Shown here: positions 1,033 through 41,928 of the stretch, one piece after another
Numbering within the stretch: position 1 is the stretch's first letter
Layout: each line of letters starts with the position of its first letter
Source: Thermoplasmata archaeon
Lineage (GTDB): Archaea > Thermoplasmatota > Thermoplasmata > Lutacidiplasmatales > UBA184
Reading direction: 5' to 3'
Assembly (NCBI GenBank): GCA_027315165.1
Contig: DAHUYN010000007.1
Location: forward strand, 10,260 to 74,259
Length of the DNA stretch: 64,000 nt
Made by a program: the position numbers and the translations under genes
The notes under the pieces: generated by a model
What the model was told of the DNA's origin: nothing
The model's input: the letters and a program-made list of their open reading frames with translations, nothing else
Databases searched by the model: none

Positions 1033-1090
1033 GCGCGCCGTCCCCGCCCCGGCGCGAGGGATAAATACCCCGCCCTCGTGGTAGGTCCCG

Positions 1091-1255
1091 ATGGCCCCTG
1101 ACTCCCAGAAGAGCGGCTTCCACTCCGCCGCCGGTCTCATCCAGTACTACGACATGGAGGAGACGCGGGCGCTCAAGATCGACCCGTACATCGTCCTCAC
1201 GCTCGGCATCGGGGCCGCGATCCTCGTCGAGGTCCTGAACTGGAAGCTCGCCTGA
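1091..1255 (+). CDS. secG: Sec61-beta / SecG-family small translocon subunit
   Basis: 54-aa ORF translated by hand: MAPDSQKSGFHSAAGLIQYYDMEETRALKIDPYIVLTLGIGAAILVEVLNWKLA. It has the conserved IQYY...single C-terminal TM of archaeal Sec61beta. It is absent from the supplied ORF track because it is under 60 aa. Confidence 0.6.
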   Translation: MAPDSQKSGFHSAAGLIQYYDMEETRALKIDPYIVLTLGIGAAILVEVLNWKLA

Positions 1256-1292
1256 GCGGGCCGTAGCGGCCGCCCGCAACGACCCGACGCCG

Positions 1293-3857
1293 TCAGCGGC
1301 GCGTCCGTCGCGGTCCTCGTCGGCGTCCCCGACGGACCGCCGCGACGACCGCGAGCAGAACCCCGATCGCGGCGAGCGCACCGACGCCCAGCCACAGGCC
1401 CGACGGGAGCAAGCTCGAGGTCGCGGCGCCGCCGCCCGCCGGCGGGGTCGCGTGGGTCCCGCCCCCGGGCGGAGAGCCGGTGCCGTTCGCCGGCGCGGCG
1501 AGGACCGTGAGGGTGAGCGTCGCGTTCGCGTCGTAGCCGAGGGCATCGTGCACCTCGAGCGAGACGTTCCACGTTCCGACGCCGAGCGTGGGGGTCGCCG
1601 TCGCGGCCGTCGACGCACCGCCGGCCCATGACCAGTCGTACGTGTACGGCGCCTCGCCGCCGAAGACCGAGGCGGCGAGCTGCGGCGCGAACGGCGCCTC
1701 ACCGGCGGTCTCGCCGGTGCTGATCCCCGCCGAGAGCGACGGTAGGACGACGACCTGCCCGCGCTGGTCGACGGACCGGCCGAGCGAGTCGGTGACGCTC
1801 GCGACGACGTCGTACGTCCCCGGGCCGGCGTAGGTGTGGAAGAGCGTGCCGCTCCCGTACGCCTGACCCCCGTCCCCGAAGGAGACCTGGACCGGCGAGG
1901 GGTCGGCGCCGCCGGTCACGCTCACCTCGAACGTCGCCGTGAACGGAGCCTCCCCGGTGGCCGAGGACGGAGTGAGGCGGAGGCCGAGCACCGGGAGCGG
2001 CATCGCGACGACGGTCGCGTACGGGACGTCGGCGAGGATCAGCTCGCCGTTCGCGAGAAGCGACCCGGCGAGGTCCGAGGCGGCGCCGTCGACCGGCCCG
2101 GCTCCGGCGGCGACGCACGCGGCGGCCGCGCATCGGAGCAGGGTGAGGTTGCCGGTGGCTCCCGGCGCGGGGACGACGTCGAACGACACCGTCCAGGAGT
2201 CCCCGGGCAAGAGGACGTTCTCCGAGGGGACGGCGCTCCAGTTCCAGCCGACCCCGACGACGCCGGAGCGGTTCGAGACCGACGGCGTCTGCTCGCAGGA
2301 GGCGTTCGGCGCGCCGGGCGCGGCCGAGCAGACCGCCGAGTACGCCGGGGCCGCCGCGAGCGCCACGTCGGGTCCGAGAAGGAGCGAGAGGAACGGAGCG
2401 GGTCCCGGCGTCACCATCGCGGCGCCGGGAGGTCCCAGGCTCACGTTCGCGATCGCCGAGACGAGGCCGGGGTCCGCGACCGAGCTCGAGTAGTTGCGGT
2501 AGGTCATCGAGCCCGCGGTCCCGTTGCACGAGGCGAACGTCGGCCCGTCCCAGCTGCCGCCCGTCGCGAGCGCCAGGTCGCAGCCGGCTTTGAGGATGGA
2601 CGCCGAATCGTTCGCGGGTATGCTCGCGTTCGTCGTCGACGGCCAGCCCTTCGAGTGGGGGTCGGTCGGCGTATCCCAGACGTCGAGGGCGTCGATCACG
2701 CAGCGCCCGAGGGCGGAGTGGGTGCAGTCGGACGAGGCCGCGGCGAGGGCCGCGATCGAGTGGCTCGCGTTCCCGTCCTGGCTCGAAACCCATCCCTCGC
2801 AGTTGGGGCTCGCCCCCGTCGTGAAGGTGTAGATCGGCTCGCAGGTCGATCCCGAGCAGTTGGTGGAATAGTAGTAGGTCGCGGGAGAGCCGCAGTAGTC
2901 CACCGGGTAGCCGGGGTCGCGGGGCGCTGTCGATCCGAGCAGGACGAGCACGTGCTGGGCGTTCGCGCTCCAGTTCAGGCCCGCCCCCTCGAGCGCCCCG
3001 TAGAGCGCCGTGATCTCGGAGGAGGCGAGGAAGTTGTCGGAGAGGTCGGAGTCGGGGAGGGTCATCGAGGGTCGGTCGAGCACCCCCGAGCTGGCGTTGA
3101 GGAGCGTCGCGTTCACCGCATTCGGGAACGACGAGGCCGTCGTGAAGTTCCCGACGTCGACGTGGAAGGGGAAGCCGTCGCCGTCGTCGAAGGACGTGAG
3201 CGTCGCGAAGTAGTCGACGAGACCGAACGTCAGCTCGTCGGTGGGGTGGGCAGCGGCGAGCGCGGAGACGACGGTCCCGGAGTATGACGCGAACGTCGGG
3301 TCCAGGCTCGACTCCTCGCAGAGCGGCTTGCCGTTCGACTGCCCGCACGCGTCGCGGCCGGGGTCGGCGGCGCTCGCGTCGTACGCGCCGTCGTACGGGG
3401 TCGTCTCGAGGAGGAACAGCACCTGGACGCGGCCCGAGACGTTCCCGGTGACGGCGTTCCCCGTGCCGCTGCCGTAGGAGGTCGTGAGGGAGACCCGGGC
3501 GGCGCCGGTACCGGCCGGGCAGGTCGGCCACGTCGTCGGGCAGACCGTGGCGGGCGCCACGCCGACCGAGACCGAGGCGTTCGGCGTCGCGGTATCGGGT
3601 GACGACCCCGCCGCGCGGGCGTCGGGGACCCCCGCGACGAGCGCGAGGCCCGTCGACCCTCCCGGCCGGGCGGGGGCCCCGAAGCCGGGGACCGTCGCGA
3701 TGCCGCCCACCAGGAGGAGCACCGGGACGAGGAGCGCGGCCGCGAGAGTGGCGCGACCGGGTCGGGGCTCCCGGTCAGGCAGAGCGCGGGACCGCGGACG
3801 GTCGGCGCCCTCGCGGCGAGGGCACATGGGAGGCCGGTACGGGCCCCGGGATATCAA
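1293..3857 (-). CDS. cell-surface glycoprotein with N-terminal signal/TM, a PKD-like domain and a C-terminal TM anchor with a basic tail
   Basis: 854-aa ORF. The N-terminal hydrophobic segment is LLVPVLLLVGGIATV. The body is long and Ser/Thr/Gly/Ala-rich with many N-x-S/T sequons. A PKD-like block reads FTATFEVSVTGG...GDGGQAYGSGTLFHTYAGPGTYDVVASVTDSLG. The C-terminus is LWLGVGALAAIGVLLAVVAAVRRGRRRGPRRTRR. The exact start is uncertain; MCPRR is an internal alternative. Confidence 0.6.
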   Translation of the reverse strand: MISRGPYRPPMCPRREGADRPRSRALPDREPRPGRATLAAALLVPVLLLVGGIATVPGFGAPARPGGSTGLALVAGVPDARAAGSSPDTATPNASVSVGVAPATVCPTTWPTCPAGTGAARVSLTTSYGSGTGNAVTGNVSGRVQVLFLLETTPYDGAYDASAADPGRDACGQSNGKPLCEESSLDPTFASYSGTVVSALAAAHPTDELTFGLVDYFATLTSFDDGDGFPFHVDVGNFTTASSFPNAVNATLLNASSGVLDRPSMTLPDSDLSDNFLASSEITALYGALEGAGLNWSANAQHVLVLLGSTAPRDPGYPVDYCGSPATYYYSTNCSGSTCEPIYTFTTGASPNCEGWVSSQDGNASHSIAALAAASSDCTHSALGRCVIDALDVWDTPTDPHSKGWPSTTNASIPANDSASILKAGCDLALATGGSWDGPTFASCNGTAGSMTYRNYSSSVADPGLVSAIANVSLGPPGAAMVTPGPAPFLSLLLGPDVALAAAPAYSAVCSAAPGAPNASCEQTPSVSNRSGVVGVGWNWSAVPSENVLLPGDSWTVSFDVVPAPGATGNLTLLRCAAAACVAAGAGPVDGAASDLAGSLLANGELILADVPYATVVAMPLPVLGLRLTPSSATGEAPFTATFEVSVTGGADPSPVQVSFGDGGQAYGSGTLFHTYAGPGTYDVVASVTDSLGRSVDQRGQVVVLPSLSAGISTGETAGEAPFAPQLAASVFGGEAPYTYDWSWAGGASTAATATPTLGVGTWNVSLEVHDALGYDANATLTLTVLAAPANGTGSPPGGGTHATPPAGGGAATSSLLPSGLWLGVGALAAIGVLLAVVAAVRRGRRRGPRRTRR

Positions 3858-3933
3858 TTCGACCTGGCGGTACGCCGATCTTGAGCGCTGCGACCCCTTG
3901 TACGACGCGACGTCCGCGTCGGGACCGCGCCGA

Positions 3934-4923
3934 TCAGGCGGTGCCGCCCGCGACCGCGAGCGGTCCGAGCCCGGGGAGGAACCGGGCGACGCCCTCCCGG
4001 CCGAGGAGGAAGACCTTCGACTCCGGGGACTCGTCGAGGATCGGGTAGCCGACGCGCGCGGCGAGCGCGCGCGCGAACGTCCCGACCTCCTCGTGCGTCG
4101 GCACGTGCGGGCGCCCGAGCCGCTGGCGGGAGCGGCCCATGTACACGTAGCCCTTCGGTTCGATGAAGTCGGGGCGCGCGAGAAGGTCGAGCTCGGCGTA
4201 CTGCTCGCTCCACCCGAGATTCCAGCCGCGGACGAGGGTGTGTCGGAGCACGCGGCGCGTCCGGAGCCCCCGGAGGATCCCGAGCGACTCGACCAGCCGG
4301 TCCCAGGCGTGCGGGTCGGTCGGCATCGTGAGGCGCTGGAAGACCTCGCGGTTCGGCGCGGTCACCGACAGGTAGAGCTGCGTCGGCAGCGGGTCGAGGG
4401 CGCGGAGCCCGTCCGGGTTCGTCCCGTTCGTCACCAGGAACGTCGTGATGCCGCGCTCGTGGCAGAGCTCGAGGAACCGGTTCATCTTCGGGTAGAGCGT
4501 CGGCTCGCCGGTGAGGGAGATCGCGATGTGCCGGGGGCTCTGCGACGCCGCCCAGCGCTCCTTCGAGACGCTCGCCTCTCCCTTGAACCCGGAGAGGATC
4601 CGGCGCTGCGCCTCGATCGACCGCTCGAGCAGCCCCTCGGGGTCGTCGTACTCCTCCATCACGGAGTCGTTCTCCCAGCCCTGGTTGCGCCAGCAGAAGC
4701 GACAGTGGAGGTTGCACGAGTCGATCGCCGGCGACATCTGCAGGCACCGGTGCGACTCGATCCCGTAGAACCGGCCCTTGTAGCAGTCGCGTCCCTCGAC
4801 GAGCGACTGACGGGTCCAGTAGCAGAGCTTGACGGCGCTGTGCCGGCCGATGAGCTGGTAGCCCTGCCCGGACAGCTCGGTCGCGAGGTCCTGGTCGCCC
4901 ATCGCGGCGGCTTCGACCGCCAC
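3934..4923 (-). CDS. taw1: tRNA 4-demethylwyosine synthase Taw1/TYW1 (radical SAM)
   Basis: 329 aa with the radical-SAM CxxxCxxC motif (CNLHCRFCW) and a Taw1-like overall sequence (GEPTLYP, FLVTNGT). Confidence 0.85.
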   Translation of the reverse strand: MAVEAAAMGDQDLATELSGQGYQLIGRHSAVKLCYWTRQSLVEGRDCYKGRFYGIESHRCLQMSPAIDSCNLHCRFCWRNQGWENDSVMEEYDDPEGLLERSIEAQRRILSGFKGEASVSKERWAASQSPRHIAISLTGEPTLYPKMNRFLELCHERGITTFLVTNGTNPDGLRALDPLPTQLYLSVTAPNREVFQRLTMPTDPHAWDRLVESLGILRGLRTRRVLRHTLVRGWNLGWSEQYAELDLLARPDFIEPKGYVYMGRSRQRLGRPHVPTHEEVGTFARALAARVGYPILDESPESKVFLLGREGVARFLPGLGPLAVAGGTA

Positions 4924-23961: not shown

Positions 23962-24051
23962 CGAGGCGTCGCGGGGCCGCGGACCCGCCCGCCCTCGGCC
24001 TCGGGGGCGACGGTCCGGGGGCCGGGCGGCCGCGAACCCACTGCCCGATGG

Positions 24052-24059
24052 TTTTTATA
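24052..24059 (+). promoter_or_regulatory. TATA box (TTTTTATA) for a leaderless transcript of the giant surface-protein gene
   Basis: An A/T octamer in otherwise 70% GC DNA, 26 nt upstream of the GTG start at 24085. Confidence 0.5.
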
Positions 24060-24084
24060 CCGGGAGTCCGCCTTAATTGCGAGC

Positions 24085-27000
24085 GTGGACCGTTTTCGGC
24101 GTACCCTCCCCACTCGCGGAGGGACGCGGCCCTCCTCTGGTCGAACGCTGCTGCCGCTGCTCCTCGGGCTGCTCGTGCTCGCCTCGCTCGGGCTCTCGTT
24201 CGCGGCGGTCCCGATGGCGCGCGCGGGGGCGGTGCCCTCCCCTCCGCTCGCCGCATCGGTCGCTCCCGCGGCGACCCTGCACGGGGACCTCATCGTCTCC
24301 GCGGCGAACTCGCCGTTCGTGATCTCCCCCGCCACGACCGGCAGCGCCCTCTACGCGCAGCAGGGGAACGTCACCGTCCTCGCGGGCGGCACCCTCATCG
24401 TCCGCGGTGAGACCCTCGACTTCGTCCAGTTCGTCGCCGACACGGGGACCCTCGCGAACCGGGTCGCCCACCTCTACCACTTCTCCGTCCAGGGGACGGT
24501 CTCGCTCGACAACTCGACGGTGACGACCGACACGGGCGTCATCAACGCCTACACGAAGCTCCTGTTCAACGTGAGCGCGGGCGGCAACGTCACGCTCGCC
24601 TCGAGCACCCTCGCCTTCCCCGGCTGGCTCGAGGTCAGTGGCGCCGGGGCCTCGATGACGCTCGAGAACAGCGCCATCACGCCGAACGCGGCGATCTCGC
24701 AGCTCAACGAGAACGTCTCGATCCTCGGCGACACCGTCTACGGCCCGTCGATCTCGGTCTCCGCGGGCGCGGCGCTGAACCTGTTCAACAGCACGGTCAG
24801 CGCGACGTACAAGGACAACCTCCTCTCCAGTGGCGTCCCCGGTCCGCTGCCCGTCACCGACGCGGGCCACTTCGCGCTCAACGTCTCGGGCGGCCAGACG
24901 CTCTCGAGCTGGCCGACCCCGACGGACTCCGAGAACGTGTCTCGCGCAATGCTCTACCCGACGTTCGCCGGCGGCACGATCTCGCTCACCTACTCGTCGA
25001 CCTCGGCAAGCGTCTCGACGGGCAGCACCTTCGGGTTCGCCGGGAACACCTACGCGCTCCCGACGATCGCCTTCGCCCCCGGAGGCGGCCTCGTCAACCT
25101 CTCGCTCCCCGCGAACGCCGTCACGGCGCTCAACGCGGCGGGGCCCCTCGGCTGGCTCGAGGCGACCGGCTCCTTCGACCAGGCCGGAACGATCCAGCTC
25201 GCGCTCGCGACGACGGGCCTCGCGTCGACGGTCGTCGTCGACTCGGCCACCGTCGCGCTCACGCCGGTGCTCTCCTACAACGTCACCGCGAGCGGCGCGG
25301 GCACGACGATCACCGCCGCCGACAGCAGCCTCGACCTCAACTGGAACCTCACGCCGGGCACCCCGGTCGCCTCGGGGATGCCGCCGACGCCCTGGTCGTC
25401 GAACAAGCTCCTGCTCAGCGGCGGCGCCGCCGCCTTCCTCGCGAGCGTCACGATCCCCGCGGGGCGCAGCTCCGTCTTCTTCGCGACCTCCGCGGTCCTC
25501 CCCGATGCCTCGAGCTCCGCCTACTTCTACCGGTGGGCCGCGATCCCCGTCACCTCGAACTCCGGGGTCGCGATCCCGGACGCGCAGGCGACCGCCTTCT
25601 ACTCCTACGACGCCTCCCAGAGCAGCAACGCGACGGCCACGGCCCTCAACAACCTCGCCTCGGCCGACCCCGCCCTCGCGACCTACGTCCAGCTCTGGGA
25701 CACCGTCCACGGGATCCCCGGCTACGGCCAGAGCGGGCCCAACGGCGATGCCTACCTCCTCCTCGCCTCGTCGGTCGTTGCCGAGCCGACGCTCCCCGAC
25801 GGGACGTACCTCGGCGGCTACCACGTCGCGCTCACCCTCTCCGGCGGCGGACAGGGCTCGACGCAGTGGGGCTACGTCTCCGTGATGCCGTACCCGATCG
25901 GGATGGCGCCGGCGACCCCGGACGTCCAGGCACCGTTCGTCTACACGAACTACGTCCCCGCGCTCGCCTTCACCTCGACGAGCCTCGTCGTCAACGGCCA
26001 GCCCGAGGCGAACGCGACGGTCGCGATCGGCCAGGTGATCACCTTCTCGAGCACGGTGACGAACGTCGGGACGGGCCCCGTCCAGTCGTTCACCGTGAAC
26101 CTCTCCTACGTCCTCCCGAGCCCGCTCGTCCCCCACCTCGTGGCCCCGACGCAGTCGTTCGGCCCTCTCGCGGTCGGCGCGCAGCAGACCGTTTCGCTCA
26201 GCTGGGTCGTCAACGAGTCGGTCACGGGCGACCACGGCTACTTCCACAACAACTTCGTCCTCACGACCTCCTGGAACGGGGGCGTCGCCCCGAACGGCGG
26301 CGTCGCGACGGACACGGTCTCGGTGCGGATCGCGCCGGCGTTGATCGCCGTCGCGTTCACGCCGCCGACCGGTGCCCTCTCGATGAACGTCGGCTACCCG
26401 GCGAACGGGAGCGTCATCTTCAACGGCTCGGGCGCCGCGGTCGTGAACATCACCGCGGTCGCGAGCGACGGCACGGAGTACCTCCTCACCTCCGCCGCCG
26501 AGACGAGCGGGTCGTTCAACCTCCCGCTCTACGTCCTCTCGAACATGCCGTCGGGGACCTACTCGATCGTCATCAACGCCACCTACAACGACCGCTCGGC
26601 GACGGCGACGATCCCCAACTCGTTCACGGTCGCGGGGGCTCCGGCGCCGGCGACGCCGTTCTGGCAGCAGAAGCTCTTGGGCCTCGAGGTCCTCTACTGG
26701 ATCCTCATCGCCGTCGCGGTCCTCGCGGGGATCCTCGCCTTCCTCTTCCTCGCGCGGCGGACGGCGCGCGGCAAGCTCGTCGAGTGCGGCGAGTGCGGCG
26801 CGCTGATCCCCGAGAACGCGACGCAGTGCCCGCAGTGCGGCGCCGAGTTCGAGCAGGACCTCGTCCGGTGCAGCCGATGCGGCGCGACGATCCCGGCGAA
26901 CTCCGCGGTCTGCCCCGAGTGCGCCGCCCAGCTCCTCGGCTCGCCCGACCAGGAGGCCCGCGACCCCGAGCGGCAGGGCTTCGCCGACGTGGTCGAGCGG

Positions 27001-27462
27001 TTCCGGCTCGAGGCCAAGAAGGAGCTCGGGGACAACTACAGCGAGGGGGCGTTCTGGGACTGGTGGAAGCGCCAGCCGACCTACCTCTCGTTCAGCCAGT
27101 ACCGGCTCCAGCAGTCGCAGGGGACGCGCGCCGGCATGAGCGCTCCGCAGGAGAGCACGACGACCTCGACGGAGGCCCCCACGGCCCCGACGACGGCCCG
27201 GCCGCCGCGAGGCGGCGGTGGGGCCGCGACCGCCGCCCCGATGCGGGCGCGACCCGCTGCCACCGCCCCGCCCGCGTCGACGACGGCCTCACGGAGCGCC
27301 CCGGCGACCGCGAGAGCGGCTCCGACGCCGGCCCCGGCGCCCGCGGCCCCGGCCCCGGCGGCCGCCTCCGGCGGCCCCGCGATGAAGCCGTGCTCGAACT
27401 GCGGCAAGGAGATCCCGCCGGACTACCTCGTCTGTCCGTTCTGCGGCGCGGTGACGCAGTAG
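24085..27462 (+). CDS. giant N-glycosylation-rich surface protein (beta-helix-like repeats) with one TM and a cytoplasmic tail carrying double zinc ribbons
   Basis: 1125 aa with a GTG start 26 nt after a TTTTTATA box. It has a signal peptide and about 840 aa of NxS/T-rich repeats (NVTLASSTLAF, NSTVSATY). The single TM is WILIAVAVLAGILAFLFLA. The cytoplasmic tail contains CGECG..CPQCG, CSRCG..CPEC and a terminal CSNCG..CPFCG. Confidence 0.65.
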   Translation: MDRFRRTLPTRGGTRPSSGRTLLPLLLGLLVLASLGLSFAAVPMARAGAVPSPPLAASVAPAATLHGDLIVSAANSPFVISPATTGSALYAQQGNVTVLAGGTLIVRGETLDFVQFVADTGTLANRVAHLYHFSVQGTVSLDNSTVTTDTGVINAYTKLLFNVSAGGNVTLASSTLAFPGWLEVSGAGASMTLENSAITPNAAISQLNENVSILGDTVYGPSISVSAGAALNLFNSTVSATYKDNLLSSGVPGPLPVTDAGHFALNVSGGQTLSSWPTPTDSENVSRAMLYPTFAGGTISLTYSSTSASVSTGSTFGFAGNTYALPTIAFAPGGGLVNLSLPANAVTALNAAGPLGWLEATGSFDQAGTIQLALATTGLASTVVVDSATVALTPVLSYNVTASGAGTTITAADSSLDLNWNLTPGTPVASGMPPTPWSSNKLLLSGGAAAFLASVTIPAGRSSVFFATSAVLPDASSSAYFYRWAAIPVTSNSGVAIPDAQATAFYSYDASQSSNATATALNNLASADPALATYVQLWDTVHGIPGYGQSGPNGDAYLLLASSVVAEPTLPDGTYLGGYHVALTLSGGGQGSTQWGYVSVMPYPIGMAPATPDVQAPFVYTNYVPALAFTSTSLVVNGQPEANATVAIGQVITFSSTVTNVGTGPVQSFTVNLSYVLPSPLVPHLVAPTQSFGPLAVGAQQTVSLSWVVNESVTGDHGYFHNNFVLTTSWNGGVAPNGGVATDTVSVRIAPALIAVAFTPPTGALSMNVGYPANGSVIFNGSGAAVVNITAVASDGTEYLLTSAAETSGSFNLPLYVLSNMPSGTYSIVINATYNDRSATATIPNSFTVAGAPAPATPFWQQKLLGLEVLYWILIAVAVLAGILAFLFLARRTARGKLVECGECGALIPENATQCPQCGAEFEQDLVRCSRCGATIPANSAVCPECAAQLLGSPDQEARDPERQGFADVVERFRLEAKKELGDNYSEGAFWDWWKRQPTYLSFSQYRLQQSQGTRAGMSAPQESTTTSTEAPTAPTTARPPRGGGGAATAAPMRARPAATAPPASTTASRSAPATARAAPTPAPAPAAPAPAAASGGPAMKPCSNCGKEIPPDYLVCPFCGAVTQ

Positions 27463-35436: not shown

Positions 35437-36794
35437 CGCGCGCGGGCCGTGCCCCGGCCGGCGAGAAGGTCGAACACGTCCCGGCCCGCGACCGTCCCGA
35501 GGGTCCCCAACGCGGCGGCCCGCTCGCCGAACTTCGTGCCGGAGCCGCCGGTCGCGGGCACGCCCGCGCCGACGAGCAGGAACGGGACGGGGTCGTCCGC
35601 GTGCCCCTTGAGGACGCACGGCGTCGCGTGGTCGGCCGTCACGGCGAGCCGGCAGCGTCCGAGGTCGACCCCCTCGAGGAACGGTCCGAAGAAGGAGCGG
35701 TCGAGCGCCTCGACGATCTCCTTCTTGCGGAGCGCGTCGCCGTCGTGACCGGGCTCGTCCGGCCCCTTGAGGTGGACGTAGACGAACGGGTGGGTCCGAA
35801 GGGCCTCGAGCGTCACGCGCGCCCGCTCGCGGAGCGCTGCGTCCCGGTCCGCGCCCATCGGGCCGACGAACAGGTCCGTGAGACCGAGGACCCTCGCGAT
35901 CCCGCGCTCGACGGGCATCTCGGTCACCGCGGCCCCGGGGACGTGGTGCCGGGCCTCGAAGGTGGGCCCCGGCGTCCCCGAGAGGCTGCCGGCGTTGCGG
36001 ACCAAGAGCGCGTTCGCGACCTTGCGGCCCCGTAGCGCCCGGCGGGCGTTCACGGGGTGGCCGGCGAGAACCGGGGCGGCCCGTTCGAGGAACCGGTTGA
36101 CCGCGGTGGCGGTCCTCGCGGCCGACGGTCCGTCGGCGAGCGGGTGGACCTCGAGGAGGCGCGGCGTCTCGACCGAGACCGCGCGTCCCATCCCGCCGAC
36201 CCTCTCGTAGAACGGGTCCGCGTTCGAGACCTCCGGCGAGAGCGAGACCCCGCTACGGGGGTGGAGCCAGAGGACCCCGCGATGGCCGACCGTCGCGCGG
36301 ACCTCGGCCTGGATCCCGTCGGGGCCGAGAAGGTCGGCCTCGGTGAGCGCGCGAGCGAGCTCGCGCGCCTCCTCGGTGCCGAGCGAGCGCCCGACTCGCG
36401 AGTCGAGGATCGCCCCGGCCCCGTCGGAGGTGGCGAAGTTCAGACGGAGGGCCACGTCGACGGGCGAGAGCGGGACCCCGACCCCGAGCGCCTCGAGGAC
36501 CCCGCGCCCGGGCGAGTCGGTCACGGGGTCGAAGCCGAGCAGCGCGTAGACGCCCGCGTCGGACTCCGGCGCCACGCCGGGCCCGACGACCGAGACGACC
36601 CCGAGCTGACCGAGGGCGGCGAGACGGTCGAGGTTCGGTGTCGCCGCCGCCTCGACGGGGCTGAGGCCGCCCGTGGCCGGGTGGGGACGGTCGCCGAGGC
36701 CGTCCAGGATGATGAGCGCGAGCGCGGGGGGCGCGGGGCCGTTCCGGCTCGCCGGTGCGGTCGTCGCCAAGGTCGGAGGGAGCGGCGGACGCAT
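35433..36794 (-). CDS. apgM: 2,3-bisphosphoglycerate-independent phosphoglycerate mutase, archaeal ApgM type
   Basis: ALIILDGLGD N-terminal metal site and an AlkP-superfamily core. ATG at 36794, with a possible leaderless TTG at about 36770; the upstream Arg-rich extension is rejected. Confidence 0.8.
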   Translation of the reverse strand: MRPPLPPTLATTAPASRNGPAPPALALIILDGLGDRPHPATGGLSPVEAAATPNLDRLAALGQLGVVSVVGPGVAPESDAGVYALLGFDPVTDSPGRGVLEALGVGVPLSPVDVALRLNFATSDGAGAILDSRVGRSLGTEEARELARALTEADLLGPDGIQAEVRATVGHRGVLWLHPRSGVSLSPEVSNADPFYERVGGMGRAVSVETPRLLEVHPLADGPSAARTATAVNRFLERAAPVLAGHPVNARRALRGRKVANALLVRNAGSLSGTPGPTFEARHHVPGAAVTEMPVERGIARVLGLTDLFVGPMGADRDAALRERARVTLEALRTHPFVYVHLKGPDEPGHDGDALRKKEIVEALDRSFFGPFLEGVDLGRCRLAVTADHATPCVLKGHADDPVPFLLVGAGVPATGGSGTKFGERAAALGTLGTVAGRDVFDLLAGRGTARAR

Positions 36795-36796
36795 AG

Positions 36797-36802
36797 TTAT
36801 AA
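36797..36802. promoter_or_regulatory. palindromic TATA box TTATAA shared by divergent genes (apgM on the minus strand, zinc-ribbon membrane protein on the plus strand)
   Basis: The sole A/T patch in the 34-nt divergent gap, 27 nt upstream of the GTG at 36829 and abutting the apgM ATG at 36794. Confidence 0.35.
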
Positions 36803-36828
36803 GGAGCACTCCGCTCGCTCGGCCGTCC

Positions 36829-37890
36829 GTGCAGCCGACGCGGGGCATTAAGGGCTTCTTGGCGAGCCGTCCCGGGCTCGTCGTTCTCGGTCTCATCGCC
36901 GTCGGCGCGATGGTCGGAAGCTTCCTCTACCTCGGGCCGTTCATCGCGATCCCGACGCTCCTCCTCTTCGGTCTGGCGATCCCGATCTACGCGGGCTGGA
37001 AGCGCCCGCGGGTCCTCGTCCTCTTCGGGATCGTCGTGCTGCTCGCCGCCGCCCCCCTCGCGACGCTCGCCGACAACCAGGCGATCCGCGCCCCGTCCCC
37101 CGCCTACGCGAGCTCGACGGCGGCGCCGTACGGGAACGGGGGCTCGGTCCTCCAGGGGGCGCTGGCGACGCCGTACACGGGCCTACCGGGCGGCGTCTAC
37201 GAGTTCACCGCCACGGTGCACCCGGAGTACTCGCCCACGAACGCCTCGACGCCGCTCTGGGTGGAGCTGTTCGTCTCGACCTGCCCGGGCGCGACCGGGA
37301 ACTCCTCCCCCAACTGCGGCAGCGGCTACCCGTTCCTGCTCGAGAACGAGTCGCTCCCCGCGAACCTGACCGCGCCGCACTCGGTCTCCTTCAACGTGAC
37401 CCTCAACGGGACGAACATCTGGTGGTGGCAGATGGCGGCCGTTGTCGAGACCCCTGCGAACTCGGGGAACCTCACCTGGATCTTCCTCGACGTCTCCAAC
37501 GGCTACGGGGCCGTGCAGGGTCCTGTCACCGGCGACTTTGCCGCGACCTACGGCGTCATCCTGCTGCCGATCACCGAGGTGATGTTCCTCTACTCGGGGA
37601 CCGTCTTCCTGGTGGGCCTGCTCGTCTACATGTTCCTCAAGGCCCGGGAGGCCCGCCGGCGGCGCCCCCCGATCACGTCGGGCGGAGCGCCGGCGGGCGG
37701 CCCCGCCGCCGGGGGCGGGAGCTCCGAGACGGCCTCCGCGAGCGCCTCCCCGAGCCCCTCTCCGGAAGCGGCGTGCCCGAACTGCGGGGCCGTCGTCTAC
37801 CCGAGCGAGAGCGCCTGCTGGAAGTGCGGGGCCAAGCTTCCGGCGCCGGACGCGACCCCACCCTCGTCGGCGCCGCTCAAGGGCGCGTAG
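36829..37890 (+). CDS. membrane glycoprotein with N-terminal TM helices, an extracellular N-glycosylated domain, a second TM and a cytoplasmic C-terminal zinc ribbon
   Basis: GTG start 27 nt downstream of a palindromic TTATAA box. TM helices LVVLGLIAVGAMVGSFLYLGPFIAIPTLLLFGLAIPIY. Extracellular NAS/NSS/NES/NLT/NVT/NGT sequons. A TM VMFLYSGTVFLVGLLVYMFL. The terminal ribbon is CPNCGAVVYPSESACWKCGAKL. Confidence 0.5.
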   Translation: MQPTRGIKGFLASRPGLVVLGLIAVGAMVGSFLYLGPFIAIPTLLLFGLAIPIYAGWKRPRVLVLFGIVVLLAAAPLATLADNQAIRAPSPAYASSTAAPYGNGGSVLQGALATPYTGLPGGVYEFTATVHPEYSPTNASTPLWVELFVSTCPGATGNSSPNCGSGYPFLLENESLPANLTAPHSVSFNVTLNGTNIWWWQMAAVVETPANSGNLTWIFLDVSNGYGAVQGPVTGDFAATYGVILLPITEVMFLYSGTVFLVGLLVYMFLKAREARRRRPPITSGGAPAGGPAAGGGSSETASASASPSPSPEAACPNCGAVVYPSESACWKCGAKLPAPDATPPSSAPLKGA

Positions 37891-37986: not shown

Positions 37987-40149
37987 TCAGGTGAACGTCG
38001 TCGCCTGGTTCAGGATCGAGAGCGGCATCTGGTCGTTGTAGACGTACAGGTCGACCAGCGTGCTCGCGACCGAGACGCTCAGCGTGAACGGACCGTTGGA
38101 AGGCGCCTGCCAGGTGAGCGTGAGCCAGACGATCCCACCCGTCCCCGACACCGTCGAGGTCGCGGTGACGCCGACGCCGTTGTAGAGCGCGAGCGTGCCG
38201 TTCACGCGGAGCGAGGCGACGACCGCCGTCCCGGCGGGCCCGTTGTCGCGGACGCCGACGTAAACGGTCGTCGGGCGCGTGTGGCTGAGCCCGAGCAGGG
38301 TCACCTGGGCCAGGCCGACGTCGGCGAGGGCGCGGCCGCTCGACGAGGAGCTCGAGAGACCCGCCATGTAGCCGATGAGATTGTAGAGGAGGGCCGCGCC
38401 GGCCTGACCCGTCCCGAACGAGCTGCCCGAGGGGAGGGGCGTCGTGAGGAGCGCCGGGTCGGCGGCGAGGCCGACGCTGTGGCCCGTGCCGACATCCCCG
38501 ACGACGTTGGTGCCGGCCTTGAGGAAGGCGGTTCCGGTGACGCCCTGGGAGAAGTAGTCGTACGGGACGAACTGGCTCGAGGTCGAGAGCGTCTTGTTCA
38601 GCGTGAGCGTGGCCGGGACGCCGTCGGACCGGAGCCCGATCGCGCCGGAGCCGGCGTAGGCGACCGACGCCGTCGCGTTCGGCACGGTGACGCACGTCCC
38701 CGAGCTCGTCCACTTCGCGCCGACCAGGGAGAAGTAGGCGCTCGTGTAGCTCGTGCAGGTGGTCAGCCCGAAGGCGAAGGCGCCCGTGAGGAGGAACGAC
38801 GGCCCGCTCGCGCCGGTGATCTTCGCCTGCTCGGTCGTGCTCGGGGCCTTCGGGCAGCCGCTCGCCCAGTTGCTCCCGAAGTTGATCAGGACGAGCCCGT
38901 AGCTGTTGAACGTCGTCGAGGCGGGCAGGCCCGTCGTGCAGGCGACGAACATCGAGGTGAACGGCACGCCGGCGGCCGTGAGCTCCTGCGCGAGATACGC
39001 GCTCGAGTTGTACGAGGTCCGGACGCCGTTGAGGACGTTGTGCGCGACGAACAGGATCCTCGGGAAGACGGTCAGGTTCAGGGTCGCGGTCGTGACGGTG
39101 GTCCCGCCCGTGGTCGTGACGGCCTCGAGGAGGTAGCTGCCCGGGAGGGACGGCGTCCAGGTCGCCGTCACGACGGCCGTCGAGCCGGCCGGGACCGACC
39201 CGGTCACGTTCGAGAACGCCGCGCCGTTCGCCAGGAAGGAGACGGTCACGCTCGCCCCGGCGCCGCCGGCGGCGACGTAGTCGCTGAGCAGGACCGGCAC
39301 GCCCTTGACGGGGGCCGTCGTGTTCGCGCCGAGCGTCGAGGTGAACGCGCTCGCCGACGCCTCGATCGTCACGGTGAAGGCGATGCTGTTGCGGATCCCC
39401 GAGGCGTCGGTGGCGTTGACGAACAGGTAGAACGTCCCGGTCGAGCTCGTGGTCCCCGAGGCGACGTTGTAGGACCAGAGCCCCGTCACCGCGGAGAAGG
39501 TCATCGCAACCAGGCCCGTGCCCGGAATACCGGGGAGGAGCGAGAGGTTCGCGTAGACCGAGTGGGTGTTCAGCGTCGGGTCCGTGATCTGGACGCTGAC
39601 CGAGAAGGCCTCGCCGACCTGCGGCGTCGTCGGGGAGATCAGGACGCGCACGAACGTCGGGGCCGCGGCGAGCGTCTGGCCGGGGAGCGTCACGCGGAAG
39701 AGCAGCTGCGTCGAGGTGACGACGGAGATCGTGAGGTTCTCCGCCGCGGGGAGCGCGGCGCTCGTCACGTCCGCGTACCAGCTCTGGCCGAGGTTCCAGC
39801 TCGTCGAGCCGTTGAGACCGGAGGCGACGGTGAACGGCGAGGGGAACGCTGTCGGAGCGCCGGAGGCGTAGAGGTAGACCAAGGCCGTCGTCGGGACGGT
39901 CGGCCCGGCGAGGTGCAGCACGTTCACGCCGACGATCTGGGTACCCGCGGCGTTGTAGACGAGCCGGGCGGAGAACTGGTCCGCCGGCTGCGGCGACGGC
40001 GTCGGGAACGTGCTCACGAAGAAGAAGATCGACGAGAACAGCGTCACCGTGAGGCCGAGGAGCAGGATCGTCCCGACCACGTCCGATACGCCACGGCGCT
40101 TCCACCGGCGGGACGACCGTCGGGTCCCCCCGAACCCTCGTGCTGTCAA
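37987..40149 (-). CDS. large secreted/surface glycoprotein with an archaeal class III (type IV pilin-like) signal peptide
   Basis: Frame of ORF 37987..40332. N-terminus ...RRSSRRWKRRG|VSDVVGTILLLGLTVTLF matches the prepilin-peptidase motif [KR]G-[VA]S-x-V-[IV]-x-T-[IV]-L-[LI]. There are dozens of NxS/T sequons and no C-terminal TM. Proposed TTG start at 40149, with a GGAGAG SD and a TATA box upstream. Confidence 0.65.
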   Translation of the reverse strand: MTARGFGGTRRSSRRWKRRGVSDVVGTILLLGLTVTLFSSIFFFVSTFPTPSPQPADQFSARLVYNAAGTQIVGVNVLHLAGPTVPTTALVYLYASGAPTAFPSPFTVASGLNGSTSWNLGQSWYADVTSAALPAAENLTISVVTSTQLLFRVTLPGQTLAAAPTFVRVLISPTTPQVGEAFSVSVQITDPTLNTHSVYANLSLLPGIPGTGLVAMTFSAVTGLWSYNVASGTTSSTGTFYLFVNATDASGIRNSIAFTVTIEASASAFTSTLGANTTAPVKGVPVLLSDYVAAGGAGASVTVSFLANGAAFSNVTGSVPAGSTAVVTATWTPSLPGSYLLEAVTTTGGTTVTTATLNLTVFPRILFVAHNVLNGVRTSYNSSAYLAQELTAAGVPFTSMFVACTTGLPASTTFNSYGLVLINFGSNWASGCPKAPSTTEQAKITGASGPSFLLTGAFAFGLTTCTSYTSAYFSLVGAKWTSSGTCVTVPNATASVAYAGSGAIGLRSDGVPATLTLNKTLSTSSQFVPYDYFSQGVTGTAFLKAGTNVVGDVGTGHSVGLAADPALLTTPLPSGSSFGTGQAGAALLYNLIGYMAGLSSSSSSGRALADVGLAQVTLLGLSHTRPTTVYVGVRDNGPAGTAVVASLRVNGTLALYNGVGVTATSTVSGTGGIVWLTLTWQAPSNGPFTLSVSVASTLVDLYVYNDQMPLSILNQATTFT

Positions 40150-40204
40150 GGTCTCTCCGAACCCGAGACCGGGTCGGTACGACCGTAAACATGGCGGGCC
40201 TCGG

Positions 40205-40211
40205 TATTTAG
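40205..40211 (-). promoter_or_regulatory. TATA box (CTAAATAC on the minus strand) for the class III signal-peptide glycoprotein gene
   Basis: About 55 nt upstream of the proposed TTG start (40149). A GGAGAG SD-like sequence sits 3 nt before the TTG. Confidence 0.35.
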
Positions 40212-40440
40212 ACGTTCTCGCGGGCCCGCGGACCCCCCGCGGCGTCTCGTTCGTGGCTCCGCGCCGCGACCCACACGTATGCGCACCGGCCGCGCGCCGT
40301 CCGGGGCGACCGGCGCGACCCCGGTTATACACAGGTCCGGCCGCGACCGGCCCGAGTTTCGACGAGCCCCGGATTTGTTCGACACGTCAGCCGGGACCCG
40401 CGCCGGGGGGTCCCGGCGTCTCTCGCCGCAACACGTGGGA

Positions 40441-40456: not shown

Positions 40457-40476
40457 GGCGCGGCATAGCTCGCGCC
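40457..40476 (+). promoter_or_regulatory. palindromic candidate operator (GGCGCG-gcatagct-CGCGCC) between the TATA box and the RHH gene start
   Basis: A 6-bp perfect inverted repeat with an 8-nt spacer, positioned over the predicted TSS. RHH proteins typically autoregulate through such palindromes. Confidence 0.35.
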
Positions 40477-40480
40477 AGTC

Positions 40481-40984
40481 GTGTTCGACAAACCCACCCC
40501 TCGGCCCCCGGAGCGCTCTCCCGAGCCCTCCGGCCGCCGGGTCGGCCCCGAGGACGAGCGGATCGCGCTGCGGTGCAACCGCAGAGAGCTCCAGCTCCTG
40601 GACTCGTTCGTCGCCAGCGGCGAGTTCCGAAGCCGGTCCGAGCTCATGCGGAGCGCGCTCCAGGAGTTCCTCAGGGCGCGTGCGTCCGAGGCGGTCTCCG
40701 CCCCGGCCGCCGCCCTGCCGCCGGGCCTCGTCGAGGTCCCGGTGCGCCTGCGCCGAGAGGAGGTCGAGGCCTTCACGACCTACGCCGAGCAGGTGGCGAA
40801 CGGGCAACCGCTCGCCGACCTGCTGGCGACGGTGCTCCGCCGCGGTGAGGTGGAGCTGAAGGTCTCCGAGCTCGCGAAGCGGGCCCGCCAGCAGCGGACA
40901 GAGGCCGACGAGGCGCGAGCCTCGTTGAGCGAGCTGTCGCGCAGTGGCGAGGACCTCGCGCGTCGGGGGGTCGTGGGCCGGTAG
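40481..40984 (+). CDS. ribbon-helix-helix (CopG/MetJ-like) DNA-binding protein with a C-terminal coiled-coil
   Basis: 167 aa with a GTG start. RHH core IALRCNRRELQLLDSFVASGEFRSRSELMRSALQEFL (beta strand plus two helices), then a helical charged region (ELKVSELAKRARQQRTEADEARASLSELSRS). Confidence 0.6.
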   Translation: MFDKPTPRPPERSPEPSGRRVGPEDERIALRCNRRELQLLDSFVASGEFRSRSELMRSALQEFLRARASEAVSAPAAALPPGLVEVPVRLRREEVEAFTTYAEQVANGQPLADLLATVLRRGEVELKVSELAKRARQQRTEADEARASLSELSRSGEDLARRGVVGR

Positions 40985-41013
40985 GCCGCGGGGGAGAGGA
41001 CACGCTACCAGGG

Positions 41014-41928
41014 GTGGGAGCGACGTACGAGAACGAGCTGGAGGAACGCGGGGCAGAACGAACACCGGAGCGGACCGACGAGGGCTTCGAGGACATCGTC
41101 TTCGAGGCGCCGCGGCTCGGCCACGACATCCGGTTCATCTTCGCCGCCGTCGGCGGCGGCGCGGTCCGCATCGGCCGTGAGGTCGCGAATCACCACCTCA
41201 AGTACGTCGAGACCGTGGCGATCAACTGCGACGCCCAGGTCCAGGACCTCGAGGAGTACGACCGCCGGGTCTACCTCGGTCCGCACGATGGCACGGCCGG
41301 CGACACGCGCGGCTCCCCCTCGGAGGGCGGCCAGATCGCCCGCGCCGCGATGCCCGCCCTCGAGCGGATCTTCGACGGCGCCACGTTCGTCACCGTCCTC
41401 TGCAGCCTTGGCGGCGGCTCCGGCACCGGAGCGCTCCCCTACGTCATCGAGGCCGCCGTGCGCTCCGCGCGCGTCGTCACGGTCTTCGCCGTCAAGCCGT
41501 TCAAGGTCGAGGGCGACCGCCGCGCCGTCGCCGACCGCGCGCTCGCCCGGCTCCACTTCGTCGAGCCGTTCGTCGAGAAGCAGGAGTTCGGGGCCGCCCG
41601 CCTCCAGATCCTCGACAACGAGTCGCTCCACACGAAGGGCCGGACGATGCTCTTCAAGGACGTGAACCTCCACTGGGGCCGCGTGATCGCGACGCACATC
41701 GACCGGTCGTTCATCGGTCCGTCCGAGCACGAGCTCGCCAAGTTCCACGAGAACCACCCGGTGCCGGCCCCGACGCTCGCCACGAGCCTCGAGCTGCCGC
41801 GCCCCGCGGCCCTCGACCCGATGGCGCTCCCGCCTCTCCTCCCGCAGGCGGGCTGGGCGCCCGAGGCGCCGTCCGAGACGGAGCTCACCTTCGAGGTCGA
41901 CCGTCCCGGCGGCCCGGGTCTCTCGTAG
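41014..41928 (+). CDS. FtsZ/tubulin-superfamily GTPase-domain protein, truncated form (N-terminal GTP-binding domain only)
   Basis: 304 aa. G-box IRFIFAAVGGGAVRIG, AINCDAQVQDL (compare FtsZ AVNTDAQAL), tubulin signature LGGGSGTG, and VFAVKPFKVEGDRRAVADRALARL (compare FtsZ VVTKPFNFEGKKRMAFAEQGI). No recognisable T7 loop or C-terminal domain follows. Confidence 0.65.
   Translation: MGATYENELEERGAERTPERTDEGFEDIVFEAPRLGHDIRFIFAAVGGGAVRIGREVANHHLKYVETVAINCDAQVQDLEEYDRRVYLGPHDGTAGDTRGSPSEGGQIARAAMPALERIFDGATFVTVLCSLGGGSGTGALPYVIEAAVRSARVVTVFAVKPFKVEGDRRAVADRALARLHFVEPFVEKQEFGAARLQILDNESLHTKGRTMLFKDVNLHWGRVIATHIDRSFIGPSEHELAKFHENHPVPAPTLATSLELPRPAALDPMALPPLLPQAGWAPEAPSETELTFEVDRPGGPGLS

Follow-up and report, generated by a model that had tools for sequence, protein, structure and literature searches.

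Why would an archaeal surface protein carry zinc ribbons on the inner side of the membrane? The question is raised by a gene located at positions 24085..27462 (+) of a 64,000-nucleotide stretch of DNA (hereafter the window) from a Thermoplasmata archaeon affiliated to the Lutacidiplasmatales (GenBank assembly GCA_027315165.1, contig DAHUYN010000007.1, positions 10,260 to 74,259 of the forward strand). This complete coding sequence begins with a GTG codon and encodes 1125 amino acids (aa) plus a stop, in exact agreement between the list of open reading frames (ORFs) and an original prediction made from the letters of the window. Its product combines a very large ectodomain, a single membrane-spanning helix and a tail of 232 aa, and no other region, the ectodomain included, is as well conserved as this tail. 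We propose that the protein is a membrane glycoprotein of the exterior coat of the cell, whose tail couples this coat to cytoplasmic machinery. To this statement taken as a whole we would give an even chance; its anatomical and topological part, considered separately, appears very probable, whereas the mechanism by which the tail would dock is more tentative and falls somewhat short of even.

The proposed topology is based on several features that point in the same direction. A signal peptide (aa 1-48; 24085..24228, +), recognized by hydropathy, consists of a basic n-region and a hydrophobic core and ends in ...PMARA|GA, where the A-x-A motif suggests cleavage. In Kyte-Doolittle profiles (19-residue windows), two strongly hydrophobic runs are detected, with windows starting at residues 18-29 and 862-876, in addition to a single marginal window at residue 442. 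A single transmembrane (TM) helix (aa 866-893; 26680..26763, +), which AlphaFold places at residues 869-893, is followed by the sequence RRTARGK. This flank on the tail side bears a charge of +4, and the stretch preceding the helix has a net charge close to zero. The composition of the protein is likewise split in two: charged residues represent 5.8% of the ectodomain (K 0.4%, R 0.9%, E 1.4%, D 3.1%) versus approximately 19% of the tail, a composition normal for a cytoplasmic protein, with 0 versus 12 cysteines and 19 versus 2 NxS/T sequons. Hydropathy, motif and composition thus reveal the three features of a type I protein: it begins with a signal peptide, crosses the membrane once, close to its C-terminus, and is basic on the cytoplasmic flank. 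Moreover, zinc ribbons of the CPxCG type, such as those of the tail, require a reducing compartment. Taken together, the Sec-like signal peptide, the RRTARGK flank, the contrasting compositions and the ribbons provide strong indirect evidence for a type I membrane glycoprotein with its N-terminus outside and its tail in the cytoplasm. The placing of a cytoplasmic tail after one TM helix in the original prediction therefore agrees with both the positive-inside rule and the compositional split. The protein does not resemble a PGF-CTERM substrate of an archaeosortase, as no PGF is found in the sequence preceding the helix (...APAPATPFWQQKLLGLEVLYW) and 232 residues follow it.

The tail holds all 12 cysteines of the protein, at positions 901/904/915/918, 929/932/943/946 and 1103/1106/1117/1120, that is, three zinc ribbons of identical spacing (CxxC-x10-CxxC), and 12/12 of these cysteines are invariant among 25 full-length homologues. 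When the tail alone was compared with Pfam, Zn_Ribbon_1 (PF13240) was retrieved over three stretches (2.3e-17; 62.6 bits versus a cut-off of 25) and DZR (PF12773), the double zinc ribbon family, with 3.8e-12 (46.6 bits versus 27.3); both families also exceed their gathering cut-offs for the whole protein. The three units probably bind zinc, judging from these motifs. All three of the double-cysteine units originally predicted are thus present and the suggested search for DZR succeeds, but their spacing is uniform (x9 in the CGECG-x-CPQCG notation) instead of the 10, 10 and 11 residues first given.

Four parts follow one another along this tail, from the membrane to the C-terminus. The first is a membrane-proximal double zinc ribbon (aa 896-950; 26770..26934, +; GKLVECGECG...CPQCG / CSRCG...CPECA), which matches DZR and is modelled as beta-hairpin knuckles in a separate AlphaFold prediction of the tail (predicted local distance difference test, pLDDT, 85-89); in each of the three ribbons, short paired strands form the knuckles (pLDDT 85-93). 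Next comes a three-helix domain (aa 955-1012; 26947..27120, +; pLDDT 94-97) with the invariant motif ELGxNYSEGAFWDWWKRQ, for which no Pfam family was retrieved even at E<=10, nor any match in the PDB by sequence or by fold. It is followed by a disordered tether rich in Ala, Pro and Thr (aa 1013-1098; 27121..27378, +; pLDDT 47-57; net charge +5), variable in both sequence and length among homologues. Finally, the third zinc ribbon, KPCSNCGKEIPPDYLVCPFCGAVTQ, forms the C-terminus (aa 1099-1125; 27379..27459, +; pLDDT 93), with residues 1103-1122 as the best Zn_Ribbon_1 stretch. Annotation of the ribbons through NCBIfam was rejected, the matches being generic and sub-threshold (S26e, L40e, PolD). 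A search of PDB sequences with a profile of the tail returned nothing significant, and Foldseek found no match to the tail model in the PDB at E<=0.001; single ribbons do superpose on RanBP2-type, ribosomal and ArnA ribbons, in matches that are not significant. The conservation of these parts is unequal: the majority residue accounts for a fraction of 0.89 in the double ribbon, 0.85 in the terminal ribbon and 0.79 in the helical domain, against 0.47 in the tether and 0.46-0.60 in the regions of the ectodomain.

The mature ectodomain comprises approximately 815 aa, rather than the 840 first estimated, and is both charge-poor and free of cysteine. Its description as an extracellular domain rich in sequons is in turn borne out, since its 19 sequons exceed the 10.0 +/- 2.8 obtained in shuffled sequences (P=0.0018), and N-glycosylation is probable on this basis. 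A full-length AlphaFold2 model, built from a 47-sequence alignment (mean pLDDT 80.6), is mostly above 90 over residues 65-850. The membrane-distal N-terminal part (aa 65-250; 24277..24834, +; pLDDT >90) is a succession of repeated short beta-strands, a mixed middle region comes next, and the membrane-proximal part (aa 618-850; 25936..26634, +) shows the strand pattern of Ig-like beta-sandwich domains. These last are weakly CARDB-like: CARDB (PF07705) matches aa 641-713 with 16.5 bits, below its cut-off of 22.7, where AlphaFold predicts beta-sandwiches. The short-strand pattern at residues 65-250 suggests a solenoid-like or beta-helix-like fold in the model, in keeping with the beta-helix originally proposed, although no beta-helix figures among the Pfam matches or the top Foldseek matches of the full-length model. 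Among TM-anchored archaeal surface proteins, Sulfolobus SlaB combines a beta-helix ectodomain with a C-terminal TM helix. Against the PDB and BFVD, Foldseek retrieved only generic tandem Ig-like arrays (complement C5, transglutaminase, DUF11) for the full model, with TM-scores <=0.15 on the query, and a PDB sequence search with a profile of the whole protein gave nothing significant; no relationship to a characterized S-layer protein, or to any other solved surface protein, was found by these searches.

This architecture is not peculiar to the window. Searches with the full-length protein yielded 47 homologues of approximately 1000-1600 aa, those with a name all being Thermoplasmata metagenome-assembled genomes (MAGs), and ribbon families of Pfam are present in all but three, mostly partial, of them. 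When each GTDB species was represented by one genome, a relative was found in at least 138 species. The genes of the window and their best matches point to an uncultured Thermoplasmata archaeon, and the relatives include the Lutacidiplasmatales MAGs AcS/SubAcS from acid soil (PMC9287336), one record being named Candidatus Lutacidiplasmatales. Word-indexed searches with the tail alone or with a diverse tail alignment mostly returned fragments from contig ends; the informative search was an exhaustive one of 1.84 billion representative proteins with a hidden Markov model (HMM) of the tail core (129 positions), which retrieved 407 representative clusters at E<1e-10, of which 199 at E<1e-30. In the 145 inspected, a TM helix precedes the double ribbon by a few residues, except in four fragments cut at their N-terminus, where the upstream sequence is missing; the junction bears the signature [KR]xxGxGK[LM]VECGECG. 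Full-length members are sequon-rich proteins of 1000-3800 aa which end in the same module, made of the TM helix, the double ribbon and the helical domain of approximately 60 aa. The named members (approx. 20) are MAGs of Thermoplasmata, Thermoplasmatota, Methanomassiliicoccales, Ca. Natronoplasma and Ca. Lutacidiplasmatales.

Distant members display one to five clear CARDB repeats (whole-protein E-values of 1e-10 to 5e-60), and some relatives also MG2 or CarboxypepD_reg domains. An HMM of the ectodomain of the window's clade matches 38/74 distant members, notably over the N-terminal 150-200 residues, their N-termini aligning with HMM positions approximately 10-200; the other 36 do not match it. 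As the ectodomain HMM reaches distant members and each locus contains one copy, more than a promiscuous tail seems to be shared, and these alignments are consistent with a single ancient lineage in which the distal head and the tail have been conserved, together with a TM helix, whereas the Ig-like (CARDB) stalk varies. Two layouts of the tail were distinguished. The layout of the window (double ribbon, helical domain, linker, terminal ribbon) is found in 82/179 tails; in 91/179, a third ribbon directly follows the helical domain and the linker, in 88 of these 91, ends in a basic motif such as RRIVRRPVEKKVVPKK or KKVV repeats. Only 1/179 was scored with both the third and the terminal ribbon, whereas by eye at least P0103 and P0111 have both. 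Both layouts keep the helical domain, a total of three ribbons and a flexible stretch that terminates in a conserved short element. A further element was noticed at the beginning of the linker in the window protein (aa 1013-1021; 27121..27147), where the nearly invariant motif QGxxRAGMxAPP occupies the site of the third ribbon of the other layout and may be a linear binding motif.

From these features, we infer anchoring or coupling to cytoplasmic machinery. This reading has the best support, given that conservation is stronger in the tail than in the ectodomain. Indeed, a module clamped to the membrane, a tether and a conserved ribbon at its end, all under tighter constraint than the outer part of the protein, are what would be expected of a docking device. 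The Sec-type signal peptide would export the N-glycosylated ectodomain of approximately 815 aa, whose putative solenoid-like head would stand on a stalk of Ig-like domains, the C-terminal TM helix anchoring the whole. At the inner face of the membrane, 7 residues past the helix, the double ribbon with its two zinc ions and the three-helix domain would form a compact module, from which the flexible Ala/Pro/Thr tether (approx. 85 aa) would extend. The terminal zinc ribbon of 25 aa carried by this tether would capture a cytoplasmic protein, and the cell coat would be physically coupled to cytoplasmic machinery, be it that of the cytoskeleton or of a division ring, or else the motor of a filament.

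Two kinds of candidate partners can be named. By analogy, the first is the FtsZ/CetZ-type cytoskeleton. In Haloferax volcanii, CdpC (HVO_0399, DUF7093) is a membrane anchor of FtsZ1, to which it binds through a C-terminal C4 zinc ribbon whose zinc ligands are essential, and distant homologues with multiple zinc ribbons are reported from all classes of Thermoplasmatota (bioRxiv 10.64898/2026.07.16.738847). In the tail described here, a zinc ribbon kept close to the membrane is likewise connected to a C-terminal C4 ribbon (pLDDT 93) through a long linker without order (aa 1013-1098, pLDDT ~50). However, CdpC is a peripheral protein of 346 aa with an amphipathic helix, a C3H N-terminal ribbon and no ectodomain, whereas the proximal ribbons of the tail are of the C4 type, double and accompanied by a helical domain. 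The comparison is hence one of how the two proteins might work, any relation having been judged through the Pfam family DUF7093 rather than through the CdpC sequence itself.

The second kind, suggested by gene neighbourhood in relatives, comprises type-IV-pilus motors and KaiC-like ATPases. In 4/6 sampled distant members, a T2SSE-T2SSF-T2SSF-T2SSE cluster adjoins the ribbon-tailed gene in convergent orientation (L084 6096-19733; L087 6001-17448; L088 4035-19098; L090 4232-16788), and in L087 it is kept despite different upstream genes. In the other three loci, the genes for a KaiC-like ATPase and for a protein of 330-360 aa without Pfam match precede the ribbon-tailed gene on the same strand, the gap to the preceding gene being 18 nt in L090; by eye, the N-terminal sequence of the 330-360-aa protein has the look of a coiled coil. 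This layout, with two ATPases and a split platform, is that of the CdiP pilus machinery of Cuniculiplasma, and the exterior protein layer of such cells has been proposed to anchor filament machinery (PMC12448462). The association with the ribbon-tailed gene is suggestive, but it is not proof.

Several observations weigh against a coupling role. With respect to CdpC, the protein is attached by a TM helix and not by an amphipathic one, and DUF7093 is absent from all 14 whole-protein matches at E<=1 and from the best 25 of the 34 tail matches at E<=10. The gene order in the window and in close relatives, where synteny is kept, is cysS, zinc-type alcohol dehydrogenase, the gene under study, adenosylhomocysteinase (ahcY) and gcvH, i.e. 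a housekeeping neighbourhood without an obvious partner. The adjacency to a pilus cluster could reflect lineage synteny; the clade of the window lacks this cluster. Where the tail ends in a basic KKVV-like motif, as it does in half of the family, the ligand of this end could be lipid or nucleic acid instead of a protein. Lastly, all the members of the family come from uncultured MAGs.

Among the alternatives, the one that survives best, although we consider it unlikely, is that the tail serves the protein itself, either by self-association in the cytoplasm, clustering and spacing the coat, or as a signal for biogenesis, retention or turnover (insertion, glycosylation, degradation). Zinc ribbons commonly mediate contacts between proteins, homotypic ones included. 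The tail also occupies a constant position on ectodomains of very different length, and no universal operon partner was found across the family, close relatives having housekeeping neighbours and distant ones the pilus cluster or nothing notable. In addition, short tails are conserved too in TM-anchored archaeal S-layer proteins (bioRxiv 10.64898/2026.08.21.746120). The PySLP family of Pyrobaculum described in that study shares with the present family a signal peptide, a very large sequon-rich ectodomain, membrane-proximal Ig-like domains and one C-terminal TM helix, as well as differences in length between lineages through gain or loss of Ig-like domains. In the known TM-anchored proteins of this kind, however, the cytoplasmic tail is very short and basic, whereas here it consists of 232 aa with three ribbons and a helical domain and is more conserved than the ectodomain. 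A folded module in a tail of about 230 aa, with a long tether and a terminal binder, exceeds known sorting or retention signals in elaboration. Moreover, the terminal ribbon is nearly as conserved as the double ribbon (0.85 versus 0.89), which fits a specific binding site on a tether, as proposed in the coupling model.

A second alternative would make the protein an accessory of a type-IV-pilus-like machine, its ectodomain acting as an external anchor matrix or stator and its tail docking on PilB3/CdiPE-like or KaiC/ArlH-like ATPases. In favour of this scenario stand the convergent cluster in four of the six distant loci, its persistence in L087, the KaiC-like ATPase upstream in three loci, the resemblance to the layout of Cuniculiplasma and, in the window itself, a second ribbon-tailed membrane protein adjoining a giant Pilin_N protein (see below). 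Yet neither the cluster nor its associated genes occur in the 64-kb window or in the flanks of approximately 80 close relatives, and two other distant loci are devoid of the cluster. Furthermore, gyrB/gyrA or gyrA lies upstream in three of the four pilus-adjacent loci, and shared ancestry of gene order is sufficient to account for the association. A dedicated role at such a machine is quite unlikely on balance.

More improbable still is an output through nucleic acids, in which the ribbons would bind DNA or RNA (as a tether for the nucleoid or for mRNA), or the tail would be freed by regulated intramembrane proteolysis to act as a zinc-ribbon transcription factor, and signals would thereby pass from outside to inside. 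Zinc ribbons do occur in TFB, TFS, RNA polymerase subunits and ribosomal proteins, and weak matches of that type were obtained (RPA12, L40e, S26e, Zn_Ribbon_TF); besides, the tether carries a net charge of +5, and KKVV-like repeats, also basic, terminate the tail in half of the family. The matches in question, however, are generic and below the cut-offs. Averaged over the family, the net charge is -3 for the double ribbon and -2.3 for the helical domain; both are acidic, and the acidity of the former argues against nucleic-acid binding by the membrane-proximal module. The tail contains neither a helix-turn-helix nor an enzymatic output domain, and the neighbourhoods of the gene, in the window as in close and distant relatives, have no protease or regulator in common. 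Because of these acidic modules, and because the best structural neighbours of single ribbons, though not significant, are protein-binding (Ran-bound zinc fingers of the RanBP2 type; the ribbon of ArnA within ArnAB), we infer that the tail binds protein rather than nucleic acid.

The last alternatives, a cysteine-rich region standing outside the cell as a disulfide stalk or a separate gene joined to the first by a sequencing frameshift, are extremely unlikely, as the basic residues on the tail side of the TM helix, the charged, cytoplasm-like tail and the CPxCG-type motifs above the cut-offs of zinc-ribbon families speak against the former, and a coding signal continuous in one frame together with at least 145 representative homologues that keep the fusion speaks against the latter. 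No support was found for either, although the GC-rich linker does prove error-prone in assemblies. These were the two ways in which the original prediction could have failed. The linker in question was seen to fail in three database relatives (P0027, P0048 and P0053), whose tails are frameshifted or broken within its Ala/Pro stretch, most likely through assembly or gene-calling errors; such homologues could be mistaken for stand-alone zinc-ribbon proteins.

The integrity of the gene was assessed from the G+C content of third codon positions (GC3), in a window where G+C reaches 71-76%. GC3 amounts to 0.965 over 24085..27462 and, in each 300-nt window up to that starting at 27235, is highest of the three in the gene's own + frame (0.88-0.99). 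This preference is unbroken across the junction between the TM helix and the tail, which indicates that there is no frameshift and that the tail is not a separate gene fused to the first. The gene is real, intact and strongly coding without interruption. An ORF of 724 aa on the opposite strand (24073..26247, -) was rejected as an artefact of high G+C, given that no frame other than the + frame of the gene shows a GC3 peak; other long antisense or off-frame ORFs overlapping the gene reach at most 724 aa and, with translations rich in Arg, Gly, Asp and Glu, are likewise artefacts of 73% G+C.

The start codon is supported by the upstream sequence. A TATA-box-like archaeal element read directly from the DNA, TTTTTATA (24051..24058, +), lies 27-34 nt 5' of the GTG, and a similar element, TTTTATAC, is found at the same distance from the start in the relative L086. 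The position of this box and its counterpart support the GTG start, a promoter belonging to the gene and a leaderless or near-leaderless mRNA. The database protein P0001 is 100% identical but has 1095 aa, its annotated start lying 30 codons downstream of the GTG (24085..24174 being left out), so that it lacks the basic n-region and some of the hydrophobic core. Since most of the signal peptide is lost in this way, and since the TATA-like box stands 27-34 nt upstream of the GTG, the start of P0001 is probably mis-called.

Other genes of the window deserve mention. A second membrane protein (36673..37890, +; 405 aa) carries TM helices at its N-terminus, a loop of approximately 170 aa rich in sequons and a last TM helix followed by RRRR, and its C-terminus comprises a low-complexity linker and one ribbon, CPNCG-x9-CWKCG (Pfam ribbon matches below the cut-offs). 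It had been singled out as a protein of similar design, and the TM helix, the linker and the C-terminal ribbon are indeed there, but it starts at 36673 rather than at 36829. Convergent with it is a sequon-rich protein of 781 aa (37987..40332, -) with an archaeal type IV pilin N-terminus (Pilin_N 7.5e-9). Beyond these two, a divergent gene of the tubulin/FtsZ family (40849..41928, +; Pfam Tubulin 7.9e-13) lies approximately 13 kb from the ribbon-tailed gene, preceded by a small protein (40469..40984, +) with a weak, sub-threshold ribbon-helix-helix match. In the relative L002, a tubulin-family gene is found beyond a corresponding pair of unannotated genes (1068-3146 / 3166-4239), which resemble those of the window in size, position and orientation only, both being without Pfam match. 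The tubulin-family protein at 40849..41928 is a candidate cytoskeletal partner of the tail.

How, then, does this family relate to what has been described? Proteins of the DZR (PF12773) and Zn_Ribbon_1 (PF13240) families also present two adjacent CxxC-x10-CxxC ribbons with a third single one, but these families define a motif and not a function, and the constant helical domain of approximately 60 aa is not in Pfam. Adhesins of wall-less bacteria, such as P1 of Mycoplasma pneumoniae, combine a giant ectodomain with a TM helix at the C-terminus and a cytoplasmic tail, rich in proline, that is linked to internal structures. The present protein follows a similar plan of ectodomain, helix and cytoplasmic tail, and its organism is possibly without a rigid wall; the likeness is one of analogy, as P1 is not homologous, has no zinc ribbons and belongs to another domain of life. 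No published description of the architecture was found in literature searches, and the database names of its members are generic ('zinc ribbon domain-containing' or 'CARDB domain-containing'). The novelty thus lies in the joining of such an ectodomain to a long, structured cytoplasmic tail, in the exceptional conservation of this tail, in its unannotated helical domain and in the breadth of the family across Thermoplasmatota. The helical-domain signature ELGxxYSExxFWxWWKxQPxY and the tail signature TM-GxGK[LM]VECGECG could become an annotation profile.

For the most part, Thermoplasmata are devoid of an S-layer. Cultured Thermoplasmatales have no ordered one; they possess an unordered exterior protein layer, which cryo-tomography resolves as a glycoprotein layer approximately 20 nm thick whose protein components are unidentified (PMC12448462). 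A surface protein that is widespread across Thermoplasmatota MAGs, and more constrained in its tail than in its ectodomain, offers a concrete candidate component of this layer, and the binding of FtsZ1 by the zinc ribbon of CdpC in haloarchaea provides a directly testable hypothesis for such tails. In its boldest form, which we hold to be improbable, the proposal is that of a transmembrane linker operating across much of Thermoplasmatota, loosely integrin-like, whose tail would bind FtsZ/CetZ or pilus-motor ATPases and mechanically couple the exterior layer of these largely wall-less archaea to them for division, shape or filament anchoring; it would then be the first archaeal envelope-to-cytoplasm coupler described. 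More modestly, the tail probably ties the cell coat to something inside the cell and, if this is true, the protein would constitute a physical link between the exterior layer of these archaea and the cell interior.

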